The position numbers and the translations under genes are program-made. The notes beneath the pieces were generated by a model. That model saw only the letters and a program-made list of their open reading frames with translations. It was not told the origin of the DNA and did no database searches. Shown here piece after piece: positions 1,852-26,348 of a stretch of 64,000 nucleotides of DNA. This DNA is from Schmidtea nova (taxonomy: Eukaryota), in the NCBI GenBank assembly GCA_044892505.1, contig CM097883.1:302436001-302500000 (forward strand), given 5' to 3'. Position 1 is the stretch's first letter; every line of letters begins with the position of its first letter.

Positions 1852-2199
1852 TGTTGGGCCCACCAATTGGTCTAAAAAGGCAAAAATATTGTACTAATTT
1901 AAACAATAAATACAAATAATAACCACAAAAACATTCGAAAAACCTAAATTAAAAATTAAAATAAAATAATAAATAATAATTACTAAATTTCCAGCAAAGG
2001 AAGAAAATCAAATTGACACGAGAACGAGCAGTATGGGGGTCTGAAATAAGAAAATTACAAATAAAATCAAATAAAAGTACAATTAATTGGTTAATTACTT
2101 GAAAAATCGGGACCACCCAGCGAGAAATCTGAACCGGAAATTTAAAATGGTTTATATTAAAATAAAATAACAAAATTACTTTGATGGACGGCCGGATCC

Positions 2200-2235
2200 T
2201 GATTGGTCAATCTGACCAACTGGATCAGTATAAAT
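2200..2235 (+). promoter_or_regulatory. Candidate LTR promoter: inverted CCAAT-like pair plus TATA box (copy at 28725-28760)
   Basis: GATTGG and TTGGTCA-atc-TGACCAA (2203-2219) followed by TATAAATA at 2229-2236. Motif-based only. Confidence 0.55.
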
Positions 2236-3655: not shown

Positions 3656-3839
3656 ACGTTATATTCACATTTTTATGAACTAAACTATTTCCATAAATTA
3701 AATGGTATTGATCTGTGTTTGGCTTGTTCTTAGTTAAATTTATTTCTATTTATTTAATCATATAATTTTTACACTCGACGGATAATATTAATCGTTGGTA
3801 ACATAATTGCTGCATCATAAAATGGGTTTGTTATTTAGT

Positions 3840-4430
3840 ATGACGGAAACTAGCCAACAGCGAGAATTGGACAAGGCGTGGAGAATCCGCCGAGCCTTAG
3901 AAAAGGAGCTAAATCAGGAAAAAGCATTACGAGCCAAGGCAGAAGCTCAGATTCAGTATTTACGGACCAGCTGGTTCGCCCCAGCCCGTATGAAAGAGCA
4001 GATGAGTCGGACGGAAAGGGCTCAAAAGACAGCTGACGATTATCGCACCGAATGGGAAGCAACAAAAATTGAGTTGCGCCGATGTCTCCATTCGGTGACG
4101 ACTTCATTTATCGAGTCCGAATTGAAAGCACAAATCCGACCTATCACCTACCAGAAATGGGTAGGAGAACAGAAAGTGGCCTGCTCGGTCAGTACGGACA
4201 CCGATGGGCTCGAGGCAACAACAGTGCAGAGTCGGGTGGAAACCACCCCTGTACCAAACCCCGTCGGAAAAACGAACAAGCGAAAACGAATCGGCTCCAA
4301 ACGCCGTCGCCAAAGAAAGCTGTTCTCTCAGCAGCTACAAGCACAAGTAACCACGATGGCAGAGATGTCGGAAGCCGAGTGGTTATCAGAGATATTCCCT
4401 CCCGAAGGAATTTTCAAAGAATTTCTGTAG
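3840..4430 (+). CDS. LTR-encoded ORF B, 196 aa from first ATG; coiled coil plus Arg/Lys-rich motif
   Basis: ttgttatttAG-T-ATG start. N-terminal heptad-like region and KTNKRKRIGSKRRRQRK (4269-4319). The track start at 3807 is a TTG. Confidence 0.7.
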   Translation: MTETSQQRELDKAWRIRRALEKELNQEKALRAKAEAQIQYLRTSWFAPARMKEQMSRTERAQKTADDYRTEWEATKIELRRCLHSVTTSFIESELKAQIRPITYQKWVGEQKVACSVSTDTDGLEATTVQSRVETTPVPNPVGKTNKRKRIGSKRRRQRKLFSQQLQAQVTTMAEMSEAEWLSEIFPPEGIFKEFL

Positions 4431-4924
4431 CAGATAGAATCATAATATGATGTCAGATTTTGGAGTTAATTAAATCTTTGCTGGTCTTGTTTTTTTGTTG
4501 TTGTTATTTCCTAGGTATTTCTTTCGATTACATAATTCATATAATTAAATTTAAATTACACGTCACACAAACGAAAGGAGTAGCGATAAAGGATTTAAAT
4601 ATTATCAAATTCGTAGTTTCGTTTTGCTTGTTTTTTCGTTTTTATGGTAAATACATAGCCTCACACGCACAAAATAGAACAATAATTGCGTAAGTCCTTC
4701 TACGGCCGCGTGAACCCGTAAACATAAAGGGGGAGTAGTCCTAGCAATAGTGCTCACCTGCCCCTCATTGTTTAGCCACCCTGCGCATCACCAACTTGGT
4801 TATCAAGGGAAATAACCAAGGGCGCTCGAGTGTAACTTACGACTATTTATGCATGATCATGGATGGGAGATCCCTAGCCATCATTAAAATTTTTACCAAC
4901 CCGTCCATGAACCCAGCATAAATT

Positions 4925-4942
4925 TGGGGGCTCAGCCGGGAT
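4925..4942 (+). promoter_or_regulatory. Primer-binding site, tRNA-Pro type
   Basis: TGGGGGCTCAGCCGGGAT, 6 nt after the 5' LTR; 16/18 identical to the classic tRNA-Pro PBS TGGGGGCTCGTCCGGGAT of MLV. Confidence 0.85.
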
Positions 4943-6528: not shown

Positions 6529-6569
6529 AGGCCAACGAGCCTTATTGAATGACCTAGCTAGGCGTTATA

Positions 6570-7336: not shown

Positions 7337-9019
7337 GACAAGAAAATTGAGTATACAAAAGTAATCCCCTTGAGAAAAGGAGCAAAGAGTGTCGTAGTAA
7401 AACCAACGGAAAAGAAAGTCGGCAGCAATATTAATAAAAAAGACAAAATTAGTACTACAACAAAAACAGCAAAAAAGCAGAAAGCCGGCAAAGATAACAA
7501 CAAGAACCCACAAGGGAGTAAAGCGAGGAAGATAATAAGAGATAAATCGATTATCGAAAACGATAAATTGTCAGTAGTAAGCAACAGCTCAAGTAACAAA
7601 GAAAACCAAACGGAACCCAAGGAGAACCAAACAAGTGAAATTGAAATCGACGAAACTAACAACGATAATATCGAAGAAATAGAACACGAGATAGAACAAG
7701 AAGGAGAAACCGACGAAACTAACAACGATAATATCGAAGAAGTAGAAAACGAGGTAGAACCAGAGGTAGAAATCAACGAGAGTGATAACGAAAGTATAAT
7801 ATCGGATAACGAAGTAATAAGAGAAACAGAAAGCGATTCAAGCTCGAGTGAAACAGAAGACGAACATAACAACGAACTAGAAACAAGAGGAAACGAAAGT
7901 AAAATAACTCAAGACAGCGGAATTGAAATGGGTGAACCAAGAGAAGAAATAAAGGATAAATTTTCAGGAGAACCGTTTAACGGAGATGCGAGTAAATTAG
8001 AAACCTTTTTAAAGGAATTTGGCATATTCGTGGAAGTATGCAAGTGGAAAGCGGAAACAACAGTAAGCAGAATTCAATTATATTTGAAAGATAGTGCATT
8101 GGACCTATATTTGGAAGCGAAAAATGGTACCAATCCACCTACAAGCTGGTCAGCGATAAAGGATTTTTTCCAACAAACATTTGGAATAAATAAAGTGCTA
8201 AGCGAGGCATTCATAGAATTTTCAATGAGGAAACAAAAGATGAATGAATCTAATGCGGTATACGCGAGCGAACTGAAAAAATTAGCAAAATCGGTATTCA
8301 AGGATGGAGGTCCAATAAACGAGGAGTTAATGGCAGCCATCTTCATAGGAGGATTAAGAAGACCCGACATAAGAGCGCAAGTGGGATGCCAAGGATGCAA
8401 AACCATAGATCAAGCGTTAGAAACAGCTAACAGATTCGAATTACATATGATAGGAAGTGAGGGCAGAATTTATTTAGCCATGGACACAGCACAAAACGAA
8501 CCAGAAGTAAACCTCAACAATCACATTCCAAATTCGCAACAATTAAACCGACCACCCCCTCAACGAAGGAATGAAGGAAATAAAGTGCAGAACTTTGGAA
8601 ACCAAAACAATTACAACCCTCAAGGACAAACAAAACAATGTAAAACATGCGGGAAGTTGGGACACTGGCAGCAAGAATGCTATCAAAATTTGAATTGCGG
8701 AAAATGTGGAGTTAAAGGACATTCGGAGAGTAGATGTTCTACGATAATCTGTTTTAATTGCGGACGACCTAGTCACTATTCAAGAAATTGCGGACAAAAA
8801 AGTAATCAACGAGGAAACTGGCAGAGTAATGGGAACCGACCAAATTACGGAAATCAAACAAACACCGTAAACCGACAAGATTATGGGAACCAACAAGTCA
8901 ATAATAACAATAGTCAGAACAAAACTACCACCAAAGAAATACATTTGATGCAAGAAGTTCAAAGGTTGACGGAACTGATAAACAATACGACGAGAGGAAA
9001 TCCGCAAACCAATCAATAG
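7337..9019 (+). CDS. gag: Gag (acidic/basic N-terminal extension, capsid-like domain, three CCHC zinc knuckles)
   Basis: Frame open from 7337; first ATG only at 7928. Capsid-like FNGDASKLETFL..RKQKMNES..YASEL. Knuckles CKTCGKLGHWQQEC, CGKCGVKGHSESRC and CFNCGRPSHYSRNC (about 8639-8785). Confidence 0.93.
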   Translation, partial: DKKIEYTKVIPLRKGAKSVVVKPTEKKVGSNINKKDKISTTTKTAKKQKAGKDNNKNPQGSKARKIIRDKSIIENDKLSVVSNSSSNKENQTEPKENQTSEIEIDETNNDNIEEIEHEIEQEGETDETNNDNIEEVENEVEPEVEINESDNESIISDNEVIRETESDSSSSETEDEHNNELETRGNESKITQDSGIEMGEPREEIKDKFSGEPFNGDASKLETFLKEFGIFVEVCKWKAETTVSRIQLYLKDSALDLYLEAKNGTNPPTSWSAIKDFFQQTFGINKVLSEAFIEFSMRKQKMNESNAVYASELKKLAKSVFKDGGPINEELMAAIFIGGLRRPDIRAQVGCQGCKTIDQALETANRFELHMIGSEGRIYLAMDTAQNEPEVNLNNHIPNSQQLNRPPPQRRNEGNKVQNFGNQNNYNPQGQTKQCKTCGKLGHWQQECYQNLNCGKCGVKGHSESRCSTIICFNCGRPSHYSRNCGQKSNQRGNWQSNGNRPNYGNQTNTVNRQDYGNQQVNNNNSQNKTTTKEIHLMQEVQRLTELINNTTRGNPQTNQ

Positions 9020-9028
9020 CAAATTAGC

Positions 9029-12000
9029 ATGATGAGGAAAATAGAAAGCGAAAACGAACGATTGAATCGAGAAAGTCAAGCACGACACGCTCAGGAATGG
9101 GCAAGAATACAAAGAGAGGATGAACAAAAACAACAAGAAAGAGAGCGACAACCTCTAAGAATTAACATGCTAAGAGAAACAAACCAAACAGACACTCGCG
9201 AGAAAGAAACCACACCGGAAATAAATTCGATAAACCCGAATCCAACTGACAATGAAAGTCGAAAAGGAGTAATACAGGATGAGGGGGAAGCAGAAAAGGA
9301 AATAGAAAAGGAAGTGGAAACTGAGATAAACCAGGAAGAGAGGAAGGAGATTTGGAAAAGAGGAATGATGGTAATCATGCCCAACAAATCCGTGTTTAGA
9401 TTCCAGTATAACGTAAAAGAAGAAGTGGGAATATTATTCAACAAAGTAAACCAGATGGTTCCAGGAGTAACGAAACTGCCCAGAGAAGCGTTCTTACAAA
9501 TAGAAGGTGTGCCAAAAGTAAAGTTGGAATTAACGGATATATGGGAAAACTTGGGAGTAGTAGAAACAAAAAGAAACGTGATGATTATTAAAGAAATAGA
9601 ACCAGAAGAAATTCCACCACCAATACGTCACGAAACCCGAATCAGGCGAATATTTGAAGGAAAAATGATAAGAAGACGTTTAAAAGAGATAGACGAGTTG
9701 GGAAAGAAAATGGAAAAAGTCGAAGTAATAGAGGACAAAAATGAACTAACACCAGAAATCAACAAAAACAAAACAAAACCCACGGAGAATATACAAGGGG
9801 AAACGAACCAAACAGCACATATTAATATGTTAAGAAATACCACCAGAGAGTTCTCCGATGAAGAAGAAGATAGTGACATCAGTAGCCTAGCAGGAGACAT
9901 ATTAAATGAACCCGAAGACGAAAATAAAGAGAGAGAAGTAATAAAGACCTCAGAACCTACACAGATAAAAGTAGATGAAATCCAGAAATTACTAGATAAC
10001 TCGCTAGAAGTAATATATAACGAAGAGTTCATGGACAAGAAACAATATCGGAAATTCATGAAAGCATTATTACAAATGAACTACAAAGAATGGTTACAAG
10101 ACCGGGAAGTAGACATGTTAAATCGATACGTAAGGAAATTAATAGAGGAACCACTCCTCAATTACACCATCTCAATAATAATAAATACATCTACACCAAG
10201 AATCTGGATCAAAACTCCATTTACAGACGATATCTACAGATGGGTGGAGGACAGGCTAGGGAGCTCATATAAAAACAAATTCATCTATTCGCAGAATAGA
10301 CTCGTAAAGAAAAGAACGCACTTAGTAGAAACAGGTAAATGGCCAGGAGAAATAACCCTGTTATCAATATGTGACGAAAAGGAAGAAGAGAACCTACAAG
10401 AAGTTGCAAAGGAGGCAAACACGTGCTTCGAAAGGAGAATAGAACCTCGGTTAGAATACGCGAAAGAACGAGTCTTACGAAAGAATCTAAATTCCCTGAT
10501 AGAACAAATCATACCACAAGTCAAAAAACATAGAAAAGAGTTAATGAGAAGCGAATACGAGAAATTGAAACGATGTATTGAGTGCATACGTGACACAAGT
10601 CACACGAGATGGTCACAAATCTCACACGACAAATTAATCGCAAAAATGGGAAAAACAATGTTCAGACAAGGGAAAATAACAGATCTAAAAATTTCAGTGG
10701 AATTGCCTAATGAAGACACCAAAGAAATTGAAGTAGTAGCGGATTGCACCATTAAAGAATTAATAAATGTCATCAACGAGACACTAGTGCAAAGAGAACC
10801 CGAAGACGAATGGGAAGACGACATAATCATACAATATAACGAACATGTATTATGGGATCACGATGAGAGACGACTATATAAAATCGGTATATGGGATAAT
10901 CACCAAACCATCCACGTTATCAGAATGGACGATACACCCAGAGAAACTGCTAAAGATGAGAAAAGAGAACGGGAACGACGGAAAGAAGTTGTGCGCAAAT
11001 TACAACAAATAGTAGAAATCTATCGAAATTGGCGAACTTGGCCAGAGTGGGAAAATGTATTAGAAGAACTCAATCTCAACAGACGAATACGAACACCCGT
11101 AGAAAAACAATGGAACGAGAAAGGAAAATGTTGGGAACCAAAAGAAGGGGAATATGAAGAAGAATATGAAAGAGGAATGGAAGATGACTGCGAACCAGAA
11201 ATGAGAAGGGTTTGCATGGTGACAAGGAAAGCTACGCCAATAGACCTAGATGGACCAGAAACAGCGGCTATATGGTTAGAAAAGGAAAAGCAAAAAACGG
11301 AAGAATTTGTCGAAATATTAAAAACTAATGCGCACGGTAAGAGAAAAGTAATAAAAGGTCTCGCAGATTTTTTCGTGGTTAATGGAGAAGATATAACATG
11401 CTTGCGTAAAGTGGCAAAAGCAATCGCAGAATATAAAAGAGTCAACGAATGGTGTCCGGAACAACTAGACCACGTAATTAGGAAATGGAGAAATCAAGAA
11501 TTCTCGCAAGAAATTCCACAAAAAGTACATTTAAGAATAATATATCCAAACAAGGATAAGGAAGAGCTTTGGGTAGGAATAGCAGAAAAAATTCGAGATA
11601 TTAAAAAGAAATTGAGATACGAACCACCGTTCCATTTACAACACCAAGGACGATCATTAGATAACAGTTTAGAAATTGGAATAACGCCAGCACAACTAGA
11701 CCTCATGAATACCCTGACAGTAGAAGCAATAGCGGGTCAACCATTGAAACGTAAAGAAGAAAACCATAAACCACACGGAAGTATAAGTACGCCGAGCCCG
11801 ATGAAATCAGTACTAACACCAGGGACAAGTTCGAGACGATCTGAGACAACACCCAGAGAAACCAGAGAAAGGACTCCACCACAACCATACGACGTGGACG
11901 AAATTTTAACGGATAGCGACGATATGATAGAAGAATTAACCGAATTAACAAGGGAAAAAGACGATAACATTTTCGAAAGAATACAAGAATTACCTACGAC

Positions 12001-15000
12001 AATACAAGTAACCAACACCGGAGAAACAGAAGTCGAAGAAGAAATAATAATAGAAGAAATAAACGATTTGACAGAAGACGAAACGAGAGGGGCGAATGTC
12101 GAAAATGTACAATTAACCCAAGAAATGGAAAGATGGTTAGAAGAAAGAGCTAACGAACCAAGAGATGTCACGGAAGAAACAGGACGGGCAACAAGGTTTG
12201 TGGAAACAGGTACAGGAATGGATAGACGACCTCGAGGTAGACCCAAGACAGATCCAGCAACTGTAGTTATAAGAAATAAAGATGAAAAGAGACAAGATCA
12301 ATGGGAATTATGCTTAAGGAAACTAAATAAAATTGCGGAGATGAAAGAAAAAGAGACAACACCAATATGTCAAGGGGAGGAATGGATATCGAAAACAATA
12401 ATGGAAATATTGGCAATAATTGATCCGGAATTGAGAAAATACTGGCGGATAACTGAGATAAGCGAAAAGGCGAAGTCACTATACAGCGCAATCTCCCCCA
12501 TCTTACCGGAATTCATAAAAGAAAAGACGAAGTCAAATCATTTAGACTGGCAAGGAACCACTACGTTAATAAAGAAACTGACAGAAGGAGCGGAAACAGA
12601 TAACAAATACGTAATAGCCATTGCATACACGATCTACAATCTGTTGACACTGAGTAGAGGTCGACCAAAACCCACTGCATTAGAGAGACATATAAAAAAT
12701 ACCGCAAAGATTATAGCTAGAGAAATAGAACCTTACGTCATTAACAAAGGAGGATGGGAAACATTTATAAAAACTAACCAGAAGAAAACGCAAGCGAAGA
12801 ATATGAAGAAGAAATTCGAAAAAATATTGGAAGAGTTAGAAAAAGAACAAGCAGAAACAGGAAACGCGAAGTCATCAATGAATTTGAGCTCTATAATAAT
12901 GATGATGTTGATATGGATGATTAGCACCGATAGCGCAACAGCATTCGAAGTGTTTGATTGCGACCAAATGAAGTTAGGAGAAAAGTATTCATTGAGAGGT
13001 ACGGAGCAATGTAAAGATGCAACTCCAGTAGAGTTGCAAAAGATTAAAAAAGAACAATGGTACCACGTGTATCAAGAAGCAGAACTCATAAAGACAATGG
13101 TGAATGAATGTAAGGTGCAGAAGACGAGATTCGCATTTTACTGCGGGAGAGGACATTATTCAGCAATTGTCATGCCAGGAACGGAAAGAGAACCAATCGT
13201 GTTACAAGGAGAGGACTGCGAAGCACTGTTTAAACATGGAGAAGTAACAACAAGAGATAAAATCAAGATAAGAGGAAAGCCAGGAATGATGCTGCAACAG
13301 ACATACTATGTAGCAGGACGGATTACGGGAGGAGAAGGATATTGTCAAGGAGAAACCTACCCGATATTCGGAGTACCCGCAACTAACTTAGTGGTGATGG
13401 ATACGTATATAGTCGAATTAAAAAGCTATGAAGCATTCTTCGAACCAACAACGGGAGAAATGAAAACGTTATCCATGTGTAAAATCGACAGGAGCATGTG
13501 TCAAACGGGAATGTCAACATTAGTATACAAACCAAAGGTGAACGAATGTCAATTACAACTGCTACAAGGAGCACAGTTCGACGAAATTCAAGGAAAGACA
13601 TTCCAGGAAGAAGACGATGACGACAAAGCTAGAGCAAAGCACCTCAAGGAAGCTTTGGAGAATAAAAGACAATTGAAACCAGATCATAGGGAAAAACGGA
13701 TAGAGATGAGAGCCACACCAACAGTATTGATAACCACAAATCAGGATGTGGGAATGAGATTCATAAAAGGGAAAGCAACCCTTAAGTGTAGTACAACGGT
13801 ATACGAAACAAATTATCCAGGAATATATGTGTCAAAACAAGAAGTACCAAATGCGAAACCCAAAATCGACACAATGGATATCAAACTACACCTGTATGTG
13901 AATAATAAAATGGATTTCCTATTCCATAGAGGACAAGCCTCATTACAAAAAGTGTACTACGATCTGATAAACAATGATTGTATACTGAATCGAGAAATAT
14001 TAAAGACAAAGTTGGCCGTAGCGATTACGAATCCAGATAGCGCGATGCCATTATTACCACTGAGAGAAGGACATTTCGGAAGAGTGGTTGGAGAAGCAAT
14101 GTATGTATACATTTGCGAAAAGACACACGCGTCGCTAGCAGCAACAACGCAGTTGAAACCTGGAACCTGTACAAACGAGTTGGAAATCGATTACAAAGGA
14201 AAAGTACGATACGTTCAACCAGTGACGAGAATCATCAATCCACCAGGGTTTGAACCAAATCCATTCAACTGTAGTAATGCGTATGGACCACTTTATCAGA
14301 AACCAGATGGTAAATGGGTTATGTTCCCAGGAAGATCCGAAGTGATAGCACCAAGAGAATTCGAGCTAATGCAGTTGTCAAAGGATAGGCAATTCAGCGA
14401 CGTAGATGTCTCAAACAACGGAATATATAGTCCAAAGGATTTAGAAGCAGCAAGGCAGAATATATTATTTCCAGCGAGAAGAGAAGCATTACTGTCAAAT
14501 ATCGTAACGATAACGGGAGGAACGGATTATCGAGAAGGACCGAATTATGAACTGTTGTTGTCACCAGCACATTTCAAGAAAGCCACGGAAAATATGATGA
14601 AAGCAATGTGGGGAAGATTCCTGATATTTGGACAAATGATGGCTGGAATACTGGGGGTCATATTAATAATCCAAATCGTCAGAGTGATAATAACGCAAAT
14701 GTTAGCGTGTTTCGATATCTACAAGAGAGAAAAGAAAGTGAATTGGAAAATGGTAGTAGGGTTTTTACCATTCCTTGCGAAAACAATGGTGTTGCACGGA
14801 CACTCAAAAGATATCCATCGAATAAAAAGACTCCTAAAGATACTAGCAAAAATGAAGGGAACAGATGAAGAAGTAGGACGAAAATTTAAAAAGATAATGA
14901 ATGACGAACAAGCAAGACAACAGCTCAAGAGAGAAAGAAAAGGTTTATGGGAGAGGGTGAAAGGATATAAAACCCAAAATGATTCGAGTGACGACGATGA

Positions 15001-18000
15001 TGACGATGACGACTATAAGGGAGGACAAGTGTATAAGAACCAAGCACCGCAATACATCGAAAAGAATCCAGCCGACGCATGGAAATGTTACGCACCTCCA
15101 CCAACCATGTATCAAGAACCACTACAAGGAGGAAAAAATAGCACGATGCAAATGATGCCAATGACAAATGTATACCCCATGATACCAGAAGATTATAAAA
15201 TGAGAAGATGTAGAAGCGTAGATCCACAAGGAGATACACACACGATCGCAGTGATGTCATCAAACACAGGTCCAGTATTAACCACGACAATAGAGATTAA
15301 CGGAAGAGAAATCGAAGCAATGATCGACACTGGAGCAAATATTTCCGCCATCGATATCAAATGGATACCACAAGAGCAAAGACGGGAAATAGAAAGGACA
15401 AACGTCCATGTAATTGCATGTAGCAAAGAAGTTGTAGAAGTAGCAGGAAGATGGTGGGTAAAAATACGCCACTTAAATACAGAAATCGATACGTACGTAG
15501 CAGTCATACCAGCATTAAGCGTACCTTGCATTATCGGAACAGATTTGATGCCAGCGTTATTTAAAGAAATCGTAATCGATCTCGGAACAATGAGATTAAA
15601 GGATCGCACCGGACAAATATGCGCAATAGAAGCCAAGGTAACGAGTTCAAAGCAAATGATAATACCGGCAAGAAAGGAAAAAATATGTTACGTAAAAATA
15701 GATCCGACAATCCAAGGCGATATGATTTTCGAACCAAGTAAGAGATTCGAGAAAAGAAAAGCGTTGCCAATGGCAAGAGGACTAGTCAACATAAACGATA
15801 ATGGGGAAATCCCAATAAACGTAGTAAATTTCGACGAGGAGGATAAAATAATCTACGAAAACGAAAGACTAGGTAAACTAACCCCAATGATGGATATCGA
15901 AATACCAATAGAAGGGGCAGAGAAAGATAAAGAACCAACCTGGAATATCGATAGTGAATTATTAAATGAGGAGCAAAAGAAGCAGTTAGAAAAACTTCTG
16001 ATAGAGTATAAGGACATATTTGCAGCATCCGATTTAGATCTAGGAACATGTGATGTCACGTTACATACAATACCATTAACAGATGAAACACCAATTGCAT
16101 TAAGGCCGTACAAACTAGCGGAAGCACAGAAAGCAGTAGCAGAAGCAGAAGTGAAGAAAATGTTGGATGCAGAAGTAATCGAACCAAGTTGCTCACCCTG
16201 GCAATTTCCAGTGGTAATGGTAAAGAAGAAAGACGGAACACAGAGATTCTGCATAGACTACCGAAGATTGAATACAGTAACAAAACGAGATACTTACCCA
16301 TTACCAGACATCAACGAAATGCTACTAACATTACAGGGAGCAGCATATTTTACATCACTAGATCTGAAAAGCGGATACTGGCAAATAAAAATGAAGGAAG
16401 AAGATAAAGAGAAAACTGCCTTTACCATCGGTAGAGACCTATATCAATTTCGAAAGATGCCCTTTGGATTAACAAACGCACCAGCATCATTTCAGAGATG
16501 CATGAATTTCGTCACCCATGGAATAAAGCAGTGTATGGTCTACATCGACGATTTATTAATCTACTCTAGCACGTTTGAACAACACATACAGGATATTCGA
16601 GATGTATTCGTTAGACTTAGACAATGGAAGTTAAAACTCAAGCCATCCAAATGCGATTGGGCAAAAGAAAAGGTTACATTTTTAGGACATATAGTGTCAG
16701 CAAAAGGAAAAGAACCGGATCCTAGAAACATCGACAAGGTAAAAGAATGTCCAGTACCAAAAACAATAACCCAGATACAAGAGTTTCTTGGATTGTGTGG
16801 ATACTATAGAAAGTTTATTAAAGATTACGCCGGAATCGCAAAGCCTATACAGGAGCTGGTAAAGAAAGATGTATCATTCATATGGGGAGATGAACAGCAA
16901 ACAGCCTTCGAGACATTAAGAGATAAACTGATAACCGCACCCATATTAGTACACCCAGACTTCAAGAAGCCATTCTTACTTGCAACAGATGCAAGCGGAT
17001 ATGCAGCAGGAGCAGTATTAGGACAATACGACGACGAAGGAAAAGAACGGGTAATCGGATATTATAGCCGGACATTCAAAAAGCATGAGAAAAATTACTC
17101 AGTAACAGAGCGAGAAGCATTAGCAATTATACTAGCAATTAAACACTTTAAATATTTATTATGGGGACACATCATCTGCATAACAACAGATCACCAACCG
17201 CTTGTATGGTTAGGACAGCACAAGGAAACATCCAGTAGATTAATGCGATGGGCAATGCAGCTACAGGAGTACTCACCAGACATAAAATTTAAATCAGGAC
17301 GAGCGAATGCGAATGCAGACTGTATGTCAAGACTGACATTTCCGGAATTAACCGATCCTGATGTACAACGAATTTGTGTATTAATAGCAGAAGATTTAGA
17401 TTTTAGTGAGTTAAAGAAAGATCAACAGGAAGACAAAGAATTAGGACAGATCATAGAGTTCCTAACATCTCGAAATATGGAAGTATTCAAGGATAATAAG
17501 GAATTAAAGGAACATATAGGAAAGTATCAACATCGATATATAATAAATAAAGGATGGTTGTTAATACAAGATGGTGAAAAGAGATTGATGTGTTTACCGG
17601 AAAACAGAAGGAAAGAGATAATGACCCAATACCACGATGGAAAATTAGGAGGTCATATGTCAGAGAAAAAGACAATAAATCGTATGAGACAAAAATATCA
17701 TTGGCGAACAATGGAGGAAGATATTAAAGAATGGATTAAAAATTGTCTAACTTGCGCAACCAGAAAGGATAGTGGGAAGAAATGGAAAAACCCGCTACAA
17801 CCAATGCCAATACCAGCAGAGCCAATGACAACTATAGCAATGGACGTAATAGGACCATTACCAGAAAGTTTAAACGGAAATATTTATATATTGGTAATAA
17901 CGGATTACCTGACGAAATTCCCGGAAGCATTTGCCATGCAAGATCAAAAAGCAAAAACCGTAGCAAAAATTCTAGTGGAAGAAATATGTTGCAGATACGG

Positions 18001-21000
18001 AACTCCAAAACAAATACTCACAGACCAAGGAACTAATTTTATGAGCGAGTTATTGAACGAGGTGACAAACTATTTCAGAATAGCAAAATTGAGAACTTCA
18101 CCATATCACCCGCAAACGAATGGACAAACGGAGCGATTCAATGGTACATTGATTAGAATGTTATCAAATTACGTCAGCAGACATCAAACTGACTGGGACG
18201 AGTACATAAAATTATGCTTAATGGCATACCGAATGTCGATACATGCAGCAACAAAACTAAGCCCATTTCAACTTATGTATGGGAGAGAATGCAACATGCC
18301 CATAGATTTGGAGTATCAACCACCATTATCCCAATATATGGAAGATGACGACTACGTAACCAAATTCAAAGAAAGAATGCAGGAAATATGGAAAACGGCA
18401 GAACTAAACATTAAATTTTATCAGGAAAGTTATAAGGATTTGCACGACCAAAAGAAAAATGTTAAAGCGAACGATCTAAAACCAGGAGATTGGGTGATAA
18501 TAGAAACTCCCGAAATAATACCAGGAACGGTTAAGAAACTCCAAAGACCTGGAAGAGGACCTTATGAAATTATATACAAAAAGGACAATAATGTCAAAGT
18601 TAAGCTGATAAACCGACCATTAATACGACCCATATATGTAAACACCTGCAGATGTAAGAAGGTGCCTAAAACGATAACTACAACACCAGAGAATCGAATA
18701 ATAACCAGATCACAAACAGCCAGGATAAATATGCTCAGAGCAAACACAAGCGAAGACGACAAAGCAGAAATAAGGCAAAAAGAAATCAGAAATATAGAAA
18801 TCATATTGAAGGCGAGAGAGATAATGGGAAGATGGCATGTTAAAGACGAAGTAGGCATATCAAGGGACATTAGACATATAATTAGCCGTTACGCACAAGG
18901 ATTACCAACCGAACCAATTATTTCTGAATTATTGGAAAAAATCCCTGAAATACTCTTATTGAAAGATGTAGGAGGACAACCAGCCTTACACAATGCGATA
19001 GAGTGTAAAAACATTGAAAGAGCAAAAGAATTCCTAAAAATCGCAAAAGAAACAAACCAAAACTTGGACGTAGGGAATCGTGAACAAGAAACTCCATTAA
19101 TGACAGCCGCAATCCACCAAGCAGATAAAGAAATGGTAGATTTATTGATAAAAGCCCATTTCAGTTGGACAGAACGAGATAGAGAAGACAAAACAGTGCT
19201 AAATCACGTAATATGGAGTTCTCACCAACCAATGCTTAAATACATAATAACTAACTCCACGTGGGAAATAGACGAACTAGTAAAAGGAGACATTATCAAA
19301 GAGGCAATCAAAATTGGTAAATGCAACACGATCCGTAAGTTAATCAAATGGAAACGACCAGAAGATGATACATGGGTCTTAGACATAAACGAAGTATACA
19401 GCGAAGGACAAAACGCGCTGTTAAGATATCTTTTGAAATTTACTTGTGATCAGAAGACATTACTAACCGTATTAGACAGAGGAAACATAAACATCACAAA
19501 GAATGAAGAAGAATACAAATTCGATATAGAGAAGGAAGCCTTATTCAACAAGATTAGGAAATGGTGTGCGAAACCACTTGATAAACTAATAACATACAAA
19601 GACATAAACAATTTTAACGATAAATACCAGACGATAGTAAGTGAGTATGAGGAATTAGTAAAAATCTTAAACCATCCCGAAAAATGCAAACAGGTTTTAG
19701 AGAAAAAAGAAAGAGAAAGTAACAAGAAACTCACACCACTCTTCAAAGCAGAAGCACCATACCAAGCTAGACTAGATGCGATACAAGAAAAAGCAAAGGA
19801 GTTGCTACCGGAATTCGAGAATTGTAAACACGCATTAGAAATACTCGGTGCATTAGTTGAAAAAGTACACGCATACGCAAAAGGAACATACAATGGTAAC
19901 GATATAACGACTTTAAAAAAGGAGATGCCAGTAACATTTTTACTACCAAAGGACGGAATAATGCCCATACATAGAGCTCTACGAAATGGCAAAGATAAAA
20001 AAGTAATGGAAATTGCAAGAGTAATGCTAAACTGCGGAAGCAACATGAATATGGTAGACGAGAAAGGAGATACACTCATGATATTTGCAGCAAGGGCTAA
20101 AACAAAAACAAAGGTGTTGGAAGAACTATACAAAGCAGGTGCAGGACTTACAGGAAAGACAGATAAAGATAATTCAATTTTGGATGTAGCATTACTAACA
20201 CATAATTGGGAAATGGTCAACTTCATTAAAACAATCTCAAATCAGGAAGAAATAGATTACCTAACTGATACGGTCAAGAAACCCAGTGTACTAACAATGA
20301 TGCATAATGTCGAACTAACAGAAGCAATACTTACGTGGATAAATCCGAATACTAACGAACCAGCATTCAGGATTAATGAGTTTACAGAACATAACCAAAA
20401 CTGGTGTATAAGAAGTGCCTTAATAACATATAAATGGCCAGAGATATTGAAGATGTTTATGGAAAGAAAGGATCTAAGAATCACAAACAGCCCGAAAGAA
20501 GAAAAATACACAGGCAAATGGAAAGAATTGATGAAGACATACATCAACAATTGGATCAAGGCCAAAAAGGAAATCTTAGAATATAAATCCACTAACAAAG
20601 TAATACCGGAGCATGTAGAAACACAAGAATTTGAGGCAAGTAATCTAACGACATTAGCATATGCAAAATTGATAGAAGAAATCAATGTCGAGGACGACAT
20701 TTTCGACGAGCCAGGGGGAGATGACAATACAGACAGTGACGACGATAACAACTCAGAAAATTCGAACGATCAAGAACCACCCGATAAAGAGGAAAACGAG
20801 AGAAAAGACAAGAAACGAGACAAAGAAGAAAAGAAAAATGAAGACGAAAAACAAAAAAATGAAGAGGGAGAACAAAGAGACAAAGGAGATAAAAATGACA
20901 CCCAACGAACAGGTTACAAATCAACCATAAAACCATTCTTCAAACCAGAGTTACTATTATTAACAGTGATTTTAACGTTAGTTAACCCAAGTCAAGGAAT

Positions 21001-23278
21001 GACATGTGAAGAAAGGGCAATAATACAAATAAAAAACGCAAAAGGAATCGAACGAGTATGTTGGTCAAAAAAGGACAAAATCACGGAACAAAATAGTCCG
21101 ATGGATTGCAGAATCTCAGAACACGAGCAAGAAATCATAGAGATCAATGACTTAGATCTAAATACCTGGTACAAAATATGCACCGTTAGAAAACAAAAGC
21201 ATCCAAGATCACACAACACAATCGCATGTGCAAAATACCAAACACCTAAAGCAGCCATGACAATACAACAGTCACCCAAAGGAGATTACATCATCGGAAA
21301 ATGTGGAAGAACAGAGACACAAGGAACAGAAAACAAAAAACCCCAGGCAATAGATAAGCAAACAACACCAACCCTACGAATTACAATAGAGAGGCCCGAA
21401 GCAAGAGTTGCCACAAACGAAACCGAAAGAGTGACTTACCAAATGGAAGTATTATGTTTAGCACTCATACTAATAATGATAAAACGATTAGAGGAAGGAA
21501 TAGAAATTGAAACTATGACAATAACAGAAGTAGAAGATACACAGAATACTAACATAAAATGTTGGGCGAGGAATAACGAGGAAATCGGCGTAAATGAAAT
21601 AAGGAAAAGTCGAAAACCAACAACAAATAAAGTAATTAAAGTATCCGAAGTAAAAGCAGATAAGATGTATAAACTATGCCTATTAGAAAAAGAGACAAAC
21701 AAGAAAGGTACCACAAAATGTAAAACATTTCAACCCGGAGAAGTAATAAAGTTCAGAAGGAGAACGAGGAAGAGAAATAAACAAATCAAGCGGAAAGTAA
21801 ACATAACATTAGAAATAAAAGAGATAGAACCAAATGTGAAAAGAGTATGCTGGAGGAAGTACGAAAAAGAAGTAAATAAAAGAACGACACCACAATGTCG
21901 AACAAAAACAGGAACAACGACGATTCAAATAAAAGGTTTAGAAAGTAAACAAACCTACGAAATATGTTTGGTAAAGAAAAATGATCAGATAACGGTAAAC
22001 GACCTAGAATGCGGAATATATACAACTTCATCCGGAACAAGAACCAAAACGTTAACACGGAAAAATAAAAGGAAACAACAAAACAAAGGAAAACCGAAGT
22101 ACACCACTACCTTTAAAAACAATAAACAACCAACAAACCAAGAAGTTACGACGAAACCCGAGAGAAAAACATCAGCAACTCTAACATTATGGAAAATAGA
22201 GAATAAAACATTGGAAATATGTTGGATAATAGTACAGAAACATATAAGAAGACAATCAAGAGAGTGCAGAAAAACAAATAAAGAAATCAAGATCGAAAAA
22301 CTACAATTTAATAGCGAGTACGAAGTATGCGCAATAGAAAAAATGGACGCACTAGGAAACCAACAAGAAAGATGCGAAACCTACTATACACCAGCAAACG
22401 CGACATCAAAAGGAGTAGCAAGGAAAATCGAATTCAAGGAACTAAGCCAAACGAATGAACAAATGGACGCAGAAAAAACAATAACCGACCCTCAAGCAAA
22501 ATGGACACCCGAAGAAGTTATCAAAGAAGTAAAAAGAAAGCAAGAGGAACGAGAACAATTAATGAGAAAACTAAAAGGACAATACGGAATAATGTTCAAC
22601 CAAAGCAAATCTATACAAACAGACGAGAATAAACAAATCAAAGAATTAATTGGCTTAGGAATATTAACAGCGACCATACCAGTAATAATCGCCTTATCAG
22701 CTATATGGATACGCAAGATAAACCCAAGAAAATCAACAACCCAATGGCTAAATATAGATAATACAAGCCATGGAGTAGAAATACTAGAAGAAAAAGCACG
22801 AGAAGAAACAAATAAGAAAGAAACAAAAAGCGGAAAACTAGGAATAAACAACGAAGACAAGGAAATAAAAGAGATTAAAGGAGAAGAGAAAAAATATGAA
22901 AGGCGAACCAGAAGCCTACCGCAGAGTTCAAAATGGTTGGGTCTAACAGTAATACTGACATTAATCAATAGGGAAGAAGCAACAAACCTACAAGCAGGGA
23001 TAAAAATAGTAAATGTCCAGGAGGTCGAGAAAATATGCTGGAGTAGAGAGGATGAACCAATTGGGAAGGATAACCCACTAAAATGTATAATCAGAAAATC
23101 CGACCAGGATATAGTACGAATAGAAGGGATGGATAGAGGAATCATGCATCGGATATGCATAATAGGAAAGGAAAAGAAGTCGGGGCTACCTAAGACAGTC
23201 GTATGTCAAAAATATGAAACGCCCAGACTTGAGTGGTATAAAGTAAAACCAACAAAGAAAAGATCAAAAACACAATAG
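9029..23278 (+). CDS. pol: 4749-aa polyprotein (UBL-Bcl2-like-Env-PR-RT-RH-INT-ANK-FN3/TM)
   Basis: Uninterrupted 14.25-kb ORF in the same frame as gag; domains listed separately below. Confidence 0.97.
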   Translation: MMRKIESENERLNRESQARHAQEWARIQREDEQKQQERERQPLRINMLRETNQTDTREKETTPEINSINPNPTDNESRKGVIQDEGEAEKEIEKEVETEINQEERKEIWKRGMMVIMPNKSVFRFQYNVKEEVGILFNKVNQMVPGVTKLPREAFLQIEGVPKVKLELTDIWENLGVVETKRNVMIIKEIEPEEIPPPIRHETRIRRIFEGKMIRRRLKEIDELGKKMEKVEVIEDKNELTPEINKNKTKPTENIQGETNQTAHINMLRNTTREFSDEEEDSDISSLAGDILNEPEDENKEREVIKTSEPTQIKVDEIQKLLDNSLEVIYNEEFMDKKQYRKFMKALLQMNYKEWLQDREVDMLNRYVRKLIEEPLLNYTISIIINTSTPRIWIKTPFTDDIYRWVEDRLGSSYKNKFIYSQNRLVKKRTHLVETGKWPGEITLLSICDEKEEENLQEVAKEANTCFERRIEPRLEYAKERVLRKNLNSLIEQIIPQVKKHRKELMRSEYEKLKRCIECIRDTSHTRWSQISHDKLIAKMGKTMFRQGKITDLKISVELPNEDTKEIEVVADCTIKELINVINETLVQREPEDEWEDDIIIQYNEHVLWDHDERRLYKIGIWDNHQTIHVIRMDDTPRETAKDEKRERERRKEVVRKLQQIVEIYRNWRTWPEWENVLEELNLNRRIRTPVEKQWNEKGKCWEPKEGEYEEEYERGMEDDCEPEMRRVCMVTRKATPIDLDGPETAAIWLEKEKQKTEEFVEILKTNAHGKRKVIKGLADFFVVNGEDITCLRKVAKAIAEYKRVNEWCPEQLDHVIRKWRNQEFSQEIPQKVHLRIIYPNKDKEELWVGIAEKIRDIKKKLRYEPPFHLQHQGRSLDNSLEIGITPAQLDLMNTLTVEAIAGQPLKRKEENHKPHGSISTPSPMKSVLTPGTSSRRSETTPRETRERTPPQPYDVDEILTDSDDMIEELTELTREKDDNIFERIQELPTTIQVTNTGETEVEEEIIIEEINDLTEDETRGANVENVQLTQEMERWLEERANEPRDVTEETGRATRFVETGTGMDRRPRGRPKTDPATVVIRNKDEKRQDQWELCLRKLNKIAEMKEKETTPICQGEEWISKTIMEILAIIDPELRKYWRITEISEKAKSLYSAISPILPEFIKEKTKSNHLDWQGTTTLIKKLTEGAETDNKYVIAIAYTIYNLLTLSRGRPKPTALERHIKNTAKIIAREIEPYVINKGGWETFIKTNQKKTQAKNMKKKFEKILEELEKEQAETGNAKSSMNLSSIIMMMLIWMISTDSATAFEVFDCDQMKLGEKYSLRGTEQCKDATPVELQKIKKEQWYHVYQEAELIKTMVNECKVQKTRFAFYCGRGHYSAIVMPGTEREPIVLQGEDCEALFKHGEVTTRDKIKIRGKPGMMLQQTYYVAGRITGGEGYCQGETYPIFGVPATNLVVMDTYIVELKSYEAFFEPTTGEMKTLSMCKIDRSMCQTGMSTLVYKPKVNECQLQLLQGAQFDEIQGKTFQEEDDDDKARAKHLKEALENKRQLKPDHREKRIEMRATPTVLITTNQDVGMRFIKGKATLKCSTTVYETNYPGIYVSKQEVPNAKPKIDTMDIKLHLYVNNKMDFLFHRGQASLQKVYYDLINNDCILNREILKTKLAVAITNPDSAMPLLPLREGHFGRVVGEAMYVYICEKTHASLAATTQLKPGTCTNELEIDYKGKVRYVQPVTRIINPPGFEPNPFNCSNAYGPLYQKPDGKWVMFPGRSEVIAPREFELMQLSKDRQFSDVDVSNNGIYSPKDLEAARQNILFPARREALLSNIVTITGGTDYREGPNYELLLSPAHFKKATENMMKAMWGRFLIFGQMMAGILGVILIIQIVRVIITQMLACFDIYKREKKVNWKMVVGFLPFLAKTMVLHGHSKDIHRIKRLLKILAKMKGTDEEVGRKFKKIMNDEQARQQLKRERKGLWERVKGYKTQNDSSDDDDDDDDYKGGQVYKNQAPQYIEKNPADAWKCYAPPPTMYQEPLQGGKNSTMQMMPMTNVYPMIPEDYKMRRCRSVDPQGDTHTIAVMSSNTGPVLTTTIEINGREIEAMIDTGANISAIDIKWIPQEQRREIERTNVHVIACSKEVVEVAGRWWVKIRHLNTEIDTYVAVIPALSVPCIIGTDLMPALFKEIVIDLGTMRLKDRTGQICAIEAKVTSSKQMIIPARKEKICYVKIDPTIQGDMIFEPSKRFEKRKALPMARGLVNINDNGEIPINVVNFDEEDKIIYENERLGKLTPMMDIEIPIEGAEKDKEPTWNIDSELLNEEQKKQLEKLLIEYKDIFAASDLDLGTCDVTLHTIPLTDETPIALRPYKLAEAQKAVAEAEVKKMLDAEVIEPSCSPWQFPVVMVKKKDGTQRFCIDYRRLNTVTKRDTYPLPDINEMLLTLQGAAYFTSLDLKSGYWQIKMKEEDKEKTAFTIGRDLYQFRKMPFGLTNAPASFQRCMNFVTHGIKQCMVYIDDLLIYSSTFEQHIQDIRDVFVRLRQWKLKLKPSKCDWAKEKVTFLGHIVSAKGKEPDPRNIDKVKECPVPKTITQIQEFLGLCGYYRKFIKDYAGIAKPIQELVKKDVSFIWGDEQQTAFETLRDKLITAPILVHPDFKKPFLLATDASGYAAGAVLGQYDDEGKERVIGYYSRTFKKHEKNYSVTEREALAIILAIKHFKYLLWGHIICITTDHQPLVWLGQHKETSSRLMRWAMQLQEYSPDIKFKSGRANANADCMSRLTFPELTDPDVQRICVLIAEDLDFSELKKDQQEDKELGQIIEFLTSRNMEVFKDNKELKEHIGKYQHRYIINKGWLLIQDGEKRLMCLPENRRKEIMTQYHDGKLGGHMSEKKTINRMRQKYHWRTMEEDIKEWIKNCLTCATRKDSGKKWKNPLQPMPIPAEPMTTIAMDVIGPLPESLNGNIYILVITDYLTKFPEAFAMQDQKAKTVAKILVEEICCRYGTPKQILTDQGTNFMSELLNEVTNYFRIAKLRTSPYHPQTNGQTERFNGTLIRMLSNYVSRHQTDWDEYIKLCLMAYRMSIHAATKLSPFQLMYGRECNMPIDLEYQPPLSQYMEDDDYVTKFKERMQEIWKTAELNIKFYQESYKDLHDQKKNVKANDLKPGDWVIIETPEIIPGTVKKLQRPGRGPYEIIYKKDNNVKVKLINRPLIRPIYVNTCRCKKVPKTITTTPENRIITRSQTARINMLRANTSEDDKAEIRQKEIRNIEIILKAREIMGRWHVKDEVGISRDIRHIISRYAQGLPTEPIISELLEKIPEILLLKDVGGQPALHNAIECKNIERAKEFLKIAKETNQNLDVGNREQETPLMTAAIHQADKEMVDLLIKAHFSWTERDREDKTVLNHVIWSSHQPMLKYIITNSTWEIDELVKGDIIKEAIKIGKCNTIRKLIKWKRPEDDTWVLDINEVYSEGQNALLRYLLKFTCDQKTLLTVLDRGNINITKNEEEYKFDIEKEALFNKIRKWCAKPLDKLITYKDINNFNDKYQTIVSEYEELVKILNHPEKCKQVLEKKERESNKKLTPLFKAEAPYQARLDAIQEKAKELLPEFENCKHALEILGALVEKVHAYAKGTYNGNDITTLKKEMPVTFLLPKDGIMPIHRALRNGKDKKVMEIARVMLNCGSNMNMVDEKGDTLMIFAARAKTKTKVLEELYKAGAGLTGKTDKDNSILDVALLTHNWEMVNFIKTISNQEEIDYLTDTVKKPSVLTMMHNVELTEAILTWINPNTNEPAFRINEFTEHNQNWCIRSALITYKWPEILKMFMERKDLRITNSPKEEKYTGKWKELMKTYINNWIKAKKEILEYKSTNKVIPEHVETQEFEASNLTTLAYAKLIEEINVEDDIFDEPGGDDNTDSDDDNNSENSNDQEPPDKEENERKDKKRDKEEKKNEDEKQKNEEGEQRDKGDKNDTQRTGYKSTIKPFFKPELLLLTVILTLVNPSQGMTCEERAIIQIKNAKGIERVCWSKKDKITEQNSPMDCRISEHEQEIIEINDLDLNTWYKICTVRKQKHPRSHNTIACAKYQTPKAAMTIQQSPKGDYIIGKCGRTETQGTENKKPQAIDKQTTPTLRITIERPEARVATNETERVTYQMEVLCLALILIMIKRLEEGIEIETMTITEVEDTQNTNIKCWARNNEEIGVNEIRKSRKPTTNKVIKVSEVKADKMYKLCLLEKETNKKGTTKCKTFQPGEVIKFRRRTRKRNKQIKRKVNITLEIKEIEPNVKRVCWRKYEKEVNKRTTPQCRTKTGTTTIQIKGLESKQTYEICLVKKNDQITVNDLECGIYTTSSGTRTKTLTRKNKRKQQNKGKPKYTTTFKNNKQPTNQEVTTKPERKTSATLTLWKIENKTLEICWIIVQKHIRRQSRECRKTNKEIKIEKLQFNSEYEVCAIEKMDALGNQQERCETYYTPANATSKGVARKIEFKELSQTNEQMDAEKTITDPQAKWTPEEVIKEVKRKQEEREQLMRKLKGQYGIMFNQSKSIQTDENKQIKELIGLGILTATIPVIIALSAIWIRKINPRKSTTQWLNIDNTSHGVEILEEKAREETNKKETKSGKLGINNEDKEIKEIKGEEKKYERRTRSLPQSSKWLGLTVILTLINREEATNLQAGIKIVNVQEVEKICWSREDEPIGKDNPLKCIIRKSDQDIVRIEGMDRGIMHRICIIGKEKKSGLPKTVVCQKYETPRLEWYKVKPTKKRSKTQ
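9365..11727 (+). CDS. Three ubiquitin-like segments in the polyprotein N-terminus (about 9365-9595, 10688-10930, 11525-11727)
   Basis: Beta-beta-helix-beta pattern, e.g. KISVELPNEDTKEIEVVADCTIKELI..IIIQYNEHVL..LYKIGI..TIHVI and VHLRIIYPN..KIRDIKKKL..LQHQGRSLDNS. By eye only; no C-terminal GG. Confidence 0.55.
12302..12782 (+). CDS. Bcl-2-like helical domain within the polyprotein
   Basis: EIEPYVINKGGWETFI resembles BH2 (Bcl-xL HLEPWIQENGGWDTFV). A hydrophobic alpha5-like segment lies about 50 aa upstream, without the canonical NWGR. Confidence 0.65.
12878..14800 (+). CDS. env: Envelope-like class III fusion glycoprotein (chuvirus / herpes gB-like) embedded in the polyprotein
   Basis: Internal signal peptide MNLSSIIMMMLIWMISTDSATA, then FEVFDC..C..YHVYQ..ECKVQKTR..FYCG, about 14 ectodomain Cys, VGEAMYVYIC..C..EL, GIYS..DL..ILFP, and TM WGRFLIFGQMMAGILGVILIIQIV (about 14610-14705). 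This motif order matches chuvirus-type glycoproteins as I know them. Confidence 0.82.
15245..15615 (+). CDS. Aspartic protease domain
   Basis: INGREIEAMIDTGANISAI (DTG at 15326) and downstream IIGTDL flap motif. Confidence 0.95.
15940..17330 (+). CDS. Reverse transcriptase plus RNase H
   Basis: SPWQFPVVMVKKKDG..RFCIDYRRLN, LDLKSGYWQ, MPFGLTNAPASFQ, YIDD (16541), LGH; RNase H ATDASG..EREALA..TDHQPL. Confidence 0.98.
17372..18720 (+). CDS. Integrase (HHCC, DDE, GPY)
   Basis: YHDGKLGGH..CLTC; AMDVIGPL, TDQGTNF, NGQTERFN; GRGPYEI. No chromodomain seen. Confidence 0.97.
18960..20240 (+). CDS. Ankyrin-repeat region fused after integrase
   Basis: GGQPALHNAI, QETPLMTAAI..MVDLLI, DKTVLNHVI, DGIMPIHRAL, GDTLMIFAA..LEELYKAGA, DNSILDVALL: two clusters of degenerate TPLHxA repeats. 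Confidence 0.85.
20940..23278 (+). CDS. Signal/TM-flanked array of Cys-containing FN3-like repeats (polyprotein C-terminus)
   Basis: Five repeats of about 75 aa with pattern (I/V)CW..C..I.I..L....Y.(I/L/V)C..C..(Y/F).T. Hydrophobic segments LLLLTVILTLV, VLCLALILIMI, LIGLGILTATIPVIIALSAIWI and WLGLTVILTLI. Confidence 0.7.
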
Positions 23279-24879: not shown

Positions 24880-24971
24880 ATAAATAAAGCGGAAAATTGT
24901 AAATATGTAAAAATAAAAACAAGAAAAATCAAAAATAAATGACAAGTCGAATGTATATATTATTGTAGAAA

Positions 24972-26348
24972 ATGGACAGAGAAGAACGAATAATCGAAAT
25001 TTTGAGACTAGAAAACAGAAAATGGAGCAAGAGACTCACATGCGGGAAATGTAACAATTTACTACGAGAACCCAGACAAACGATATGTGGATGTAGAATA
25101 TGTGCAAAATGTATACAAGAATTAGATGCAACAGGAATAACAACATGCCCAGAATGTAAAGAAGGAAGAATAGTGTTGGACGAAACCAGAACGGACAAAG
25201 CAACCCAAAGAGAAATTATGAGCACCACAACGGAGTGCGTAAATACACCTTGTACATGGCAAAGACAAATAAGTAATCTAGAAAACCATATGGAAAAGTG
25301 CGAGGAGAAAAGAACCGAATGCGAGAAGTGCCAACAGACAATAATTCTAAAGAAGAGAGAACAACACAAGGACGAATGTAAAGAAGAAGAAATCGCATGC
25401 GAATACTGCCAAACTCGAGAAACAAGGAGGAAAATTGAAGAAGAACACTTGAATATAACGGAAGAGAAAGTATGCGGACAATATACAAGCAAATGTCCAA
25501 ACAAGTGCGAAATAACAGAAGAAATAAAGTTACATGAACATTGGAAAGTATGTACCGAAAGACCAAGGGAATGTCCATATAATAAACAGGGATGTAAGGA
25601 GAAGCGGACGCGGAAAACAATGAAACAACACCTAGAAGAAGCAGCACTAATGCATGTGGAAATGACAAACGAAACGACAAAAGAAACGGAACAGACAATC
25701 CAGAAATTAGAAAAAGAAGTAGAATCACATAAGATAATGATGAGTTTACTACTAGAAACAAGAGAGCAGTTTGAACTAACCCGCCAAAGAATGGAAGAAA
25801 AAATAATAGCCATAGAAGAACTGGGAAAAGGAATGAAAATACAATATAATCAATTAATACGAGAAATTGACGAAAGAAGGGACTTACCAATTGCACCTTA
25901 CTTATGGAAAATAACAGATTTCCGAGACAAACTAACAGAAGCCCGAAATATGACTAAAACAGCAGTAATAAGCCCACCATTTTATTTATGGAAAAATGGG
26001 GTAAAAATAAGATTGAAGGTCTACCCAAATGGAGACGGAAGAGGACAAGGAACACACGTGTCAATATTTTTCTCGTTATGTAAAGGAGAATACGATGACC
26101 TAATAGAATGGCCCTTGAAAGTAGGAGTCATTATAAGAATCAAAAGTATAGGAAAACCAGTGGAAAAGTTCTTCGAGACAGACAAACATACGAGTACGAG
26201 TGAAAAACCAACAACAGAATGCGGACTAGCAGCAGGAGAACCAATGTTTATAAGGAAAGAAAACCTATGGGAACGACTATACGAGGACACTTTATACATA
26301 GAGATGGAGAAACACGAGAAAACGGATAGAAAAGGATGGTTGGCGTAA
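24972..26348 (+). CDS. Full-length intronless TRAF-family protein (RING, about 5 TRAF zinc fingers, coiled coil, MATH)
   Basis: CGKCNNLLREPRQTICGCRICAKC..CPEC; zinc-finger units such as CPNKC..HWKVC and CPYNKQGC..MKQHL; MATH YLWKITDF..SPPFY..YPNGDGRGQGTHVSIF..GEYDDLIEWP. Confidence 0.95.
   Translation: MDREERIIEILRLENRKWSKRLTCGKCNNLLREPRQTICGCRICAKCIQELDATGITTCPECKEGRIVLDETRTDKATQREIMSTTTECVNTPCTWQRQISNLENHMEKCEEKRTECEKCQQTIILKKREQHKDECKEEEIACEYCQTRETRRKIEEEHLNITEEKVCGQYTSKCPNKCEITEEIKLHEHWKVCTERPRECPYNKQGCKEKRTRKTMKQHLEEAALMHVEMTNETTKETEQTIQKLEKEVESHKIMMSLLLETREQFELTRQRMEEKIIAIEELGKGMKIQYNQLIREIDERRDLPIAPYLWKITDFRDKLTEARNMTKTAVISPPFYLWKNGVKIRLKVYPNGDGRGQGTHVSIFFSLCKGEYDDLIEWPLKVGVIIRIKSIGKPVEKFFETDKHTSTSEKPTTECGLAAGEPMFIRKENLWERLYEDTLYIEMEKHEKTDRKGWLA

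Follow-up and report, generated by a model that had tools for sequence, protein, structure and literature searches.

The window analyzed here is a 64,000-nucleotide stretch of the forward strand of Schmidtea nova contig CM097883.1 (assembly GCA_044892505.1, positions 302,436,001 to 302,500,000). It carries a long terminal repeat (LTR) retrotransposon of the Ty3/gypsy type, 29,592 bp (29.6 kb) in length, on the plus strand, which is the strand of all element features given below. Judged by its size and domain list, the element matches the Burro type of giant planarian gypsy elements. The explanation that fits it best, to which we assign a probability of roughly 0.7, is that a Burro-type envelope gene (env) lies in the middle of a Gag-Env-Pol reading frame, that its product is predicted to be a fusogen resembling herpesvirus glycoprotein B (gB), and that Pol would be carried on the cytosolic tail of Env until it is cut. 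The layout itself has already been published. What is new here is a conserved internal signal-like segment, evidence of selection on env, and a probable swap of env between subfamilies that is exact to the module.

A single reading frame from Gag to Pol

Gag (7928..9016) shares its frame with the long open reading frame (ORF) that follows; it was identified with Pfam by CCHC knuckles (E 2.8e-7) and by a Retrotrans_gag match below the cut-off (E 1.4e-4). A stop codon at 9017..9019 interrupts the frame in the window, and the remainder of the polyprotein, 4749 amino acids, is open (9029..23278). Within this remainder env is followed by an aspartic protease (PR; DTG motif, RVP; 15284..15556) and by reverse transcriptase (RT; YIDD motif), RNase H (RH) and integrase (IN) in Ty3/gypsy order (16220..18112). 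The Pfam domains RVP, RVT_1, RT_RNaseH, Integrase_H2C2 and rve all lie 3' of env in the env frame. An earlier reading of the sequence only had described an internal signal peptide, a cysteine-rich ectodomain and a transmembrane segment that run on into PR-RT-RH-IN without a stop, and the open frame at 9029-23278, hydropathy and Pfam all bear this out.

None of the 38 other copies that could be aligned at that codon has the stop at 9017-9019 (39 were fetched, one of which did not align there). The stop is a lesion of the window copy, which is broken after gag. Because the stop is absent from all 38, the family encodes one Gag-Env-Pol chain, with a predicted length of ~5,100 amino acids, and programmed read-through at the gag stop is ruled out. 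As in Burro, a single ORF extends in the family from Gag to the ankyrin repeats with env 5' of PR, and the window copy is broken by its private stop. The sequence-only reading had treated the Pol polyprotein as a separate unit, which could not be upheld, since Gag at 7928-9016 is in frame and the intervening stop is private. It had also proposed that Env and Pol are made 1:1; this agrees with the common frame and is incomplete, in that Gag is included and full-length RNA would give Gag:Env:Pol at 1:1:1. The private stop is present despite only 7 differences over 3067 positions between the two LTRs of the window copy. Probably the window element either relied on other copies for its own copying or broke soon after insertion.

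The layout is conserved among copies and relatives

A DNA search yielded 897 candidates, of which 40 were scored, and 39 loci besides the window were fetched; the set is biased toward good matches to the env-PR junction. Env and PR lie in one frame in all 39 close copies, and no stop separates them in 33. The 25 stop sites in these copies are singletons without exception, and no frameshift was found in them between 12878 and 15625. The proposal that env is placed upstream of PR, in frame, was therefore upheld when checked in other copies: the order is kept, and neither a stop nor a frameshift is common to them.

Exact-word counts were set against the bias of the search. The env word occurs at 170 places and the PR word at 153. 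Twenty loci with the env word and without the PR word were fetched, out of ~23 that visual inspection picked out in the first 100 of the 170 places. PR follows env in 19 of them, in frame in 16 and stop-free in 11; the possibility that such loci carry env without Pol was rejected on the strength of the 19. Seventeen of the 20 belong to a diverged sister subfamily. The order is also kept at 7 of 7 places in a distant family (env identity 36-38%, RT 53%), with one frame at 6. Among 20 relatives scanned as proteins from wider searches, 11 have a single ORF in which PR or RT comes after env.

Several distant relatives (P0003-P0007, P0017) have two to three aspartic-protease-like domains 3' of env. 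Four near-identical copies lie ~33 kb apart in the same genome (C1:590.85-590.96 Mb), forming a tandem array of whole elements.

Env is a predicted class III fusogen

The sequence-only reading had assigned env to the class III, chuvirus- or gB-like glycoproteins, and Pfam, a profile search, an AlphaFold2 model and Foldseek matches support the assignment. PF24664 (Monjiviricetes_fusion) matches across 12878-14899 with E 3.9e-73. The ectodomain (residues 1306-1862; 12944..14614) has 14 cysteines, each of them present in ≥90% of 109 aligned homologues, together with a single N-glycosylation sequon (residue 1747) and a furin-like REKR at 13688-13699. Of the 41 rows returned by a profile built from the homologue alignment and run against PDB sequences, 38 are gB (best E 1.5e-4) and three are huntingtin; a single-sequence PDB search with the ectodomain found nothing relevant.

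The AlphaFold2 model of the ectodomain, made with a 98-row alignment, has a pLDDT of 90 and a pTM of 0.71. Its N-terminal half is beta-rich, and its central helix spans 48 residues. Foldseek placed herpesvirus gB on top against the PDB (E 1.1e-13) and chu-like virus glycoproteins on top against BFVD (E 2e-36, TM-score up to 0.71). The sequence family, the conserved disulfide pattern and a predicted fold matching gB and chuvirus G are those of class III, supporting the prediction that Env is a gB-like class III fusogen. Env thus has in common with chuvirus (Monjiviricetes) G and herpesvirus gB the Pfam family, the cysteine pattern, the predicted fold and the long central helix. Chuvirus G and gB stand alone as type I proteins and have their signal at the N-terminus, whereas the signal is internal here and the tail runs on into Pol.

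A predicted internal signal and cytosolic Pol

The signal and transmembrane assignments are based on hydropathy and conservation. A signal-peptide-like segment (12878..12943) precedes the ectodomain; its hydrophobic stretch starts at residue 1284 (base 12878) and is closed at residue 1305 by an A-x-A motif, after which a signal peptidase site is predicted. A hydrophobic segment 5' of the first cysteine motif was seen, judged by eye, in each of the 16 Burro-type sequences that cover this region, and the four stand-alone relatives have a hydrophobic signal at the N-terminus. A methionine opens the segment in 39 of 40 copies of the window subfamily and in none of 16 copies of the sister subfamily. 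The segment reads as internal because this methionine is missing from the sister subfamily, which also weakens the case for a dedicated env start at Met 12878.

The predicted stop-transfer helix (14636..14710) contains the highest-scoring 19-residue hydrophobic window of the entire ORF (residues 1870-1888; 14636-14692). It is followed by a conserved second apolar segment (14738..14794), predicted to lie on the cytosolic face of the membrane without spanning it. On a crude membrane insertion scale, one segment scored as a span in 21 of 23 sequences and the second apolar segment was unfavourable in all 23. A single span would therefore leave PR-RT-RH-IN cytosolic, on the Env tail. At the end of the tail or linker (14801..15259), just 5' of PR, is a candidate cleavage site for the protease (residues 2073-2076); this motif, chosen and tuned by eye, is identical in 40 of 40 copies of the window subfamily and 15 of 16 of the sister subfamily. 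The furin-like REKR, in a low-confidence loop of the model, is present in 39 of 40 copies of the window subfamily and 14 of 16 of the sister subfamily (53/56), and is lacking in the distant family.

Directly 5' of env is a probable Bcl-2-like domain (12417..12800), recognized by its position, a GGW motif and its relatives. The window copy gave no match for it in PDB, Pfam or Atlas. The segment matches the relative P0006 at E 6e-8, and in a third family (L048) there are weak Pfam matches 5' of env to BCL2-like (Bcl-2, E 1.4e-4) and Ubl/SUMO-like motifs, which were found in that family only and not in the window. By analogy with cellular Bcl-2 proteins, the signal segment could serve after cleavage as the C-terminal membrane anchor of this domain.

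Selection on env and its probable exchange between subfamilies

The ratio of non-synonymous to synonymous counts is 0.11 in the ectodomain, 0.09 in the signal (6/67) and 0.02 in the transmembrane region, as compared to 0.10 in PR, 0.08 in the dUTPase-like region with RT and 0.77 in the N-terminal region; all values were taken against the window as the single reference, and the counts are not independent. These values indicate that env is under purifying selection, like RT.

The sister subfamily (17 loci) is ~78% identical overall to the window subfamily. In the four loci compared in detail, the ectodomain is identical to that of the window at 98% of amino acids and 81-85% of four-fold sites, RT at 92-93% and 38-39%, and the Bcl-2-like region at 67-69% and 30-40%. 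The tail is 68-73% identical between subfamilies. The mean p-distance between them is 0.068 over the ectodomain and transmembrane region and 0.21-0.30 elsewhere. The block of high identity has sharp borders near 12950-12960 and 14810-14830, at module ends. In trees of 26 sequences the distance between the two groups is 0.10 for env and 0.39 for RT, and each group is monophyletic in both. A recent swap of the env cassette between the two subfamilies is the likely cause, and the simplest reading of the trees is that it took place after the backbones had split and before the present copies of each subfamily radiated. The exchange may also account for contig depth being about twice as high over env.

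The same identity might instead stem from constraint at the nucleotide level, such as RNA structure or an overlapping signal. The slightly lower diversity of env than of RT in the window subfamily (p-distance 0.027 vs 0.050) fits this, but env is about as diverse as RT in the sister subfamily (0.049 vs 0.041). Four-fold site identity between subfamilies, 81-90% over the ectodomain and transmembrane region and 30-58% elsewhere, and the coincidence of sharp borders with module ends also argue for recombination, leaving constraint a very improbable cause.

A proposed assembly route

The predicted topology suggests how the chain might be handled. The internal signal would thread Env into the endoplasmic reticulum (ER), with one predicted membrane span. 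Cleavage by signal peptidase after residue 1305 would yield two products: Gag-(Ubl)-(Bcl-2-like), held in the membrane by the signal segment, and Env-Pol, which would be a type I membrane protein with PR, RT and integrase on its cytosolic tail. The tethering of Pol to the Env tail that the sequence-only reading had proposed would be consistent with this. Both halves would then sit on one membrane, and particles would bud, already enveloped, into the secretory pathway. A protease cut just 5' of PR would free Pol during maturation, and the element would spread from cell to cell as an endogenous virus.

Several observations weigh against this route. At one of the seven places in the distant family there is a frameshift between env and RT. 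Nine of the 20 scanned relatives lack PR or RT after env; five of these are stand-alone or BEL-like envs, and four, which may be fragments, end in or soon after env. One further relative (P0002) stops ~100 residues past the transmembrane segment. TM-scores against the PDB are only 0.37-0.44, with root-mean-square deviations >11 Å, which is expected of a long hinged monomer but is not a close match. The second apolar segment might itself span the membrane and thereby place Pol in the lumen; what speaks for a single span is the crude insertion scale and necessity. The protease sites are guesses. Finally, capsid assembly does not sit easily with a 1:1:1 ratio, and there may be a gag RNA that is spliced or terminated early.

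This last point leads to an alternative in which there is one ORF, but splicing or early termination yields Gag-only or Env-only products, so that the 1:1-coupled chain and tethered Pol would be minor species. Capsids normally require an excess of Gag, and Drosophila copia makes a spliced gag RNA. The single-ORF gypsy element Cer1 likewise makes a spliced product (PMC10309623). With no stop after the transmembrane segment in 33 of 39 copies, however, translation of an env message would run on into Pol if this were not spliced out as an intron, and the methionine at the signal segment is not conserved; we consider this alternative unlikely. Contig joints from two runs of unknown kind were low in depth, none with canonical splice ends spanned env, and they were not used as evidence. 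It is also conceivable, as a minority possibility, that the topology is as predicted but protease cuts the tail almost immediately, Pol being soluble and packaged via RNA or Gag, and the fusion being a matter of genome economy that leaves the enzymes uncoupled from budding sites. The conserved candidate cleavage site directly 5' of PR and the variability of the tail (68-73% identity between subfamilies) are consistent with such early release. Retroviral-type proteases, on the other hand, need to dimerize and mostly act late in assembly.

Env might also be kept for a non-infectious use, such as intracellular budding, cell-cell fusion or an immune decoy, or be carried as a decaying passenger. 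The presumed first fusion loop (ectodomain residues 68-72, from the secondary structure of the model) is not strongly hydrophobic, which would fit. Purifying selection like that on RT, the retention of 14 of 14 cysteines and of the furin-like site in 53 of 56 copies, and the likely exchange of exactly the mature Env module argue against this reading, which we consider quite improbable; of its two versions they exclude the decaying passenger alone. Returning to the route of Pol on the Env tail, we suggest tentatively, and with some doubt, that Burro elements are actively infectious endogenous viruses built in the manner of a membrane-threaded RNA-virus polyprotein, in which a chain split by signal peptidase brings fusogen, enzymes and capsid together at the ER at a fixed ratio and the mature Env module is swapped between coexisting subfamilies under selection like a host-range cassette.

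Retroviruses make Env from its own RNA and carry Pol on Gag. If the proposed route is true, the life cycle of this retroelement would be unlike theirs. The strong selection on env and its probable recent exchange suggest that the elements still pass from cell to cell, in an animal whose adults possess pluripotent stem cells. Burro RNA rises upon smedwi-2 knockdown, which makes the route testable (PMC8532177).

Relationship to known elements

Contrary to what the sequence-only reading had implied, the layout is not novel: it was described in 2019 for Burro (PMC6431247), and GAG-ENV-POL elements with a gB-type env have been listed for flatworms, nematodes and bryozoans (PMC13524379). In Burro1-4 and GYPSM1, which are giant planarian gypsy elements, env lies between gag and pol and in frame with them (Arkhipova and Yushenova 2019, PMC6431247). 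The features they have in common with the element in the window are a size of ~30 kb, long LTRs, an ORF of ~5,000 amino acids, an N-terminal Gag, an in-frame env that precedes PR and follows a BCL2-like region (a probable one in the window), a dUTPase-like position flanked by PR and RT, ankyrin repeats and a MATH/TRAF module; the Burro env also matches mononegavirus glycoproteins (PMC6431247). The 29,592 bp of the window element, with LTRs of 3067 bp, fall within the Burro size class (~30 kb, with an internal region of up to 25 kb). The TRAF module is a downstream accessory ORF here; it is inside ORF1 in Burro1 and in an upstream ORF in Dugesia tigrina (PMC6431247). That paper likened the Burro env to gypsy Env, and its section on Burro does not mention a signal segment, topology or env exchange.

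GAG-ENV-POL elements with a gB-type env (as in herpes simplex virus) have been described from nematodes, bryozoans and flatworms, six of them from Schmidtea mediterranea (PMC13524379). These errantiviruses (Smed_errantivirus_1-6) and our element share a Ty3/gypsy pol, a gB-type env ahead of pol and flatworm hosts (PMC13524379). By eye, domain I-II of the window comes closest to Smed_errantivirus_5/6; the third family (L048) resembles Smed_errantivirus_1 very closely. Recombination of env within a host was suggested there and env exchange treated as mostly ancient (PMC13524379), whereas the exchange proposed here is between sister subfamilies. The topology of a single polyprotein is not discussed in the main text of that paper, in which the terms 'fused', 'in-frame', 'single ORF' and 'Burro' do not occur. 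We found no account of a predicted topology or a subfamily swap for the Burro env in the literature searched, which did not cover subscription journals and is weak evidence of absence.

In Atlas virus (Belpaoviridae) env is likewise inside a single polyprotein, in the order Gag-Pol-Env; it differs in being a BEL/Pao element with a class II env after integrase, so that Pol is not on the Env tail (PMC9094657). BEL/Pao elements with chuvirus-like env (PMC7642597), those of mosquito among them, have the same env family, placed after integrase.

Other features of the element and the window

The LTRs (1852..4918 and 28377..31443) are 3067 bp each with TG...CA ends; on either side of the element is a 4-bp target-site duplication, CAAA (1848-1851 and 31444-31447). 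A primer-binding site 3' of the 5' LTR (4925..4942) is one that we take to be tRNA-Pro-like. Together with the PR-RT-RH-IN order and gypsy-type Pfam domains, these features are those of a Ty3/gypsy element. BEL/Pao elements have the same domain order, and it is the Pfam profile and the Burro match that appear to disfavour that class. The canonical layout of errantiviruses and retroviruses, with a separate env ORF 3' of integrase, was not found here.

The leader between the primer-binding site and gag contains tandem repeats of 29-31 bp at 6170-6770. Beyond integrase, the long ORF contains ankyrin repeats (18986..19255; Pfam) and, at 20927..22705, a second signal-like segment, Fn3-like repeats and transmembrane-like segments; the Fn3-like matches score 0.83-0.85, under the reliable range, and are a lead only. 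With such segments at 20927-23278 and 23242-24396, the polyprotein may encode a second surface protein. A signal-like segment and a transmembrane segment are also found 3' of integrase in the distant family.

An accessory ORF with a weak RING match, zf-TRAF and MATH in Pfam (24969..26348) looks like a full-length TRAF and is likely a modulator of immunity or apoptosis. Two further accessory ORFs lie 5' of the 3' LTR (26434-27522 and 27562-28158), neither with a clear family in the Pfam scan; one is coiled-coil-like and one has a transmembrane-like stretch. Beyond the element, at 36542-46400, is a satellite of ~55 copies of a 177-bp unit.

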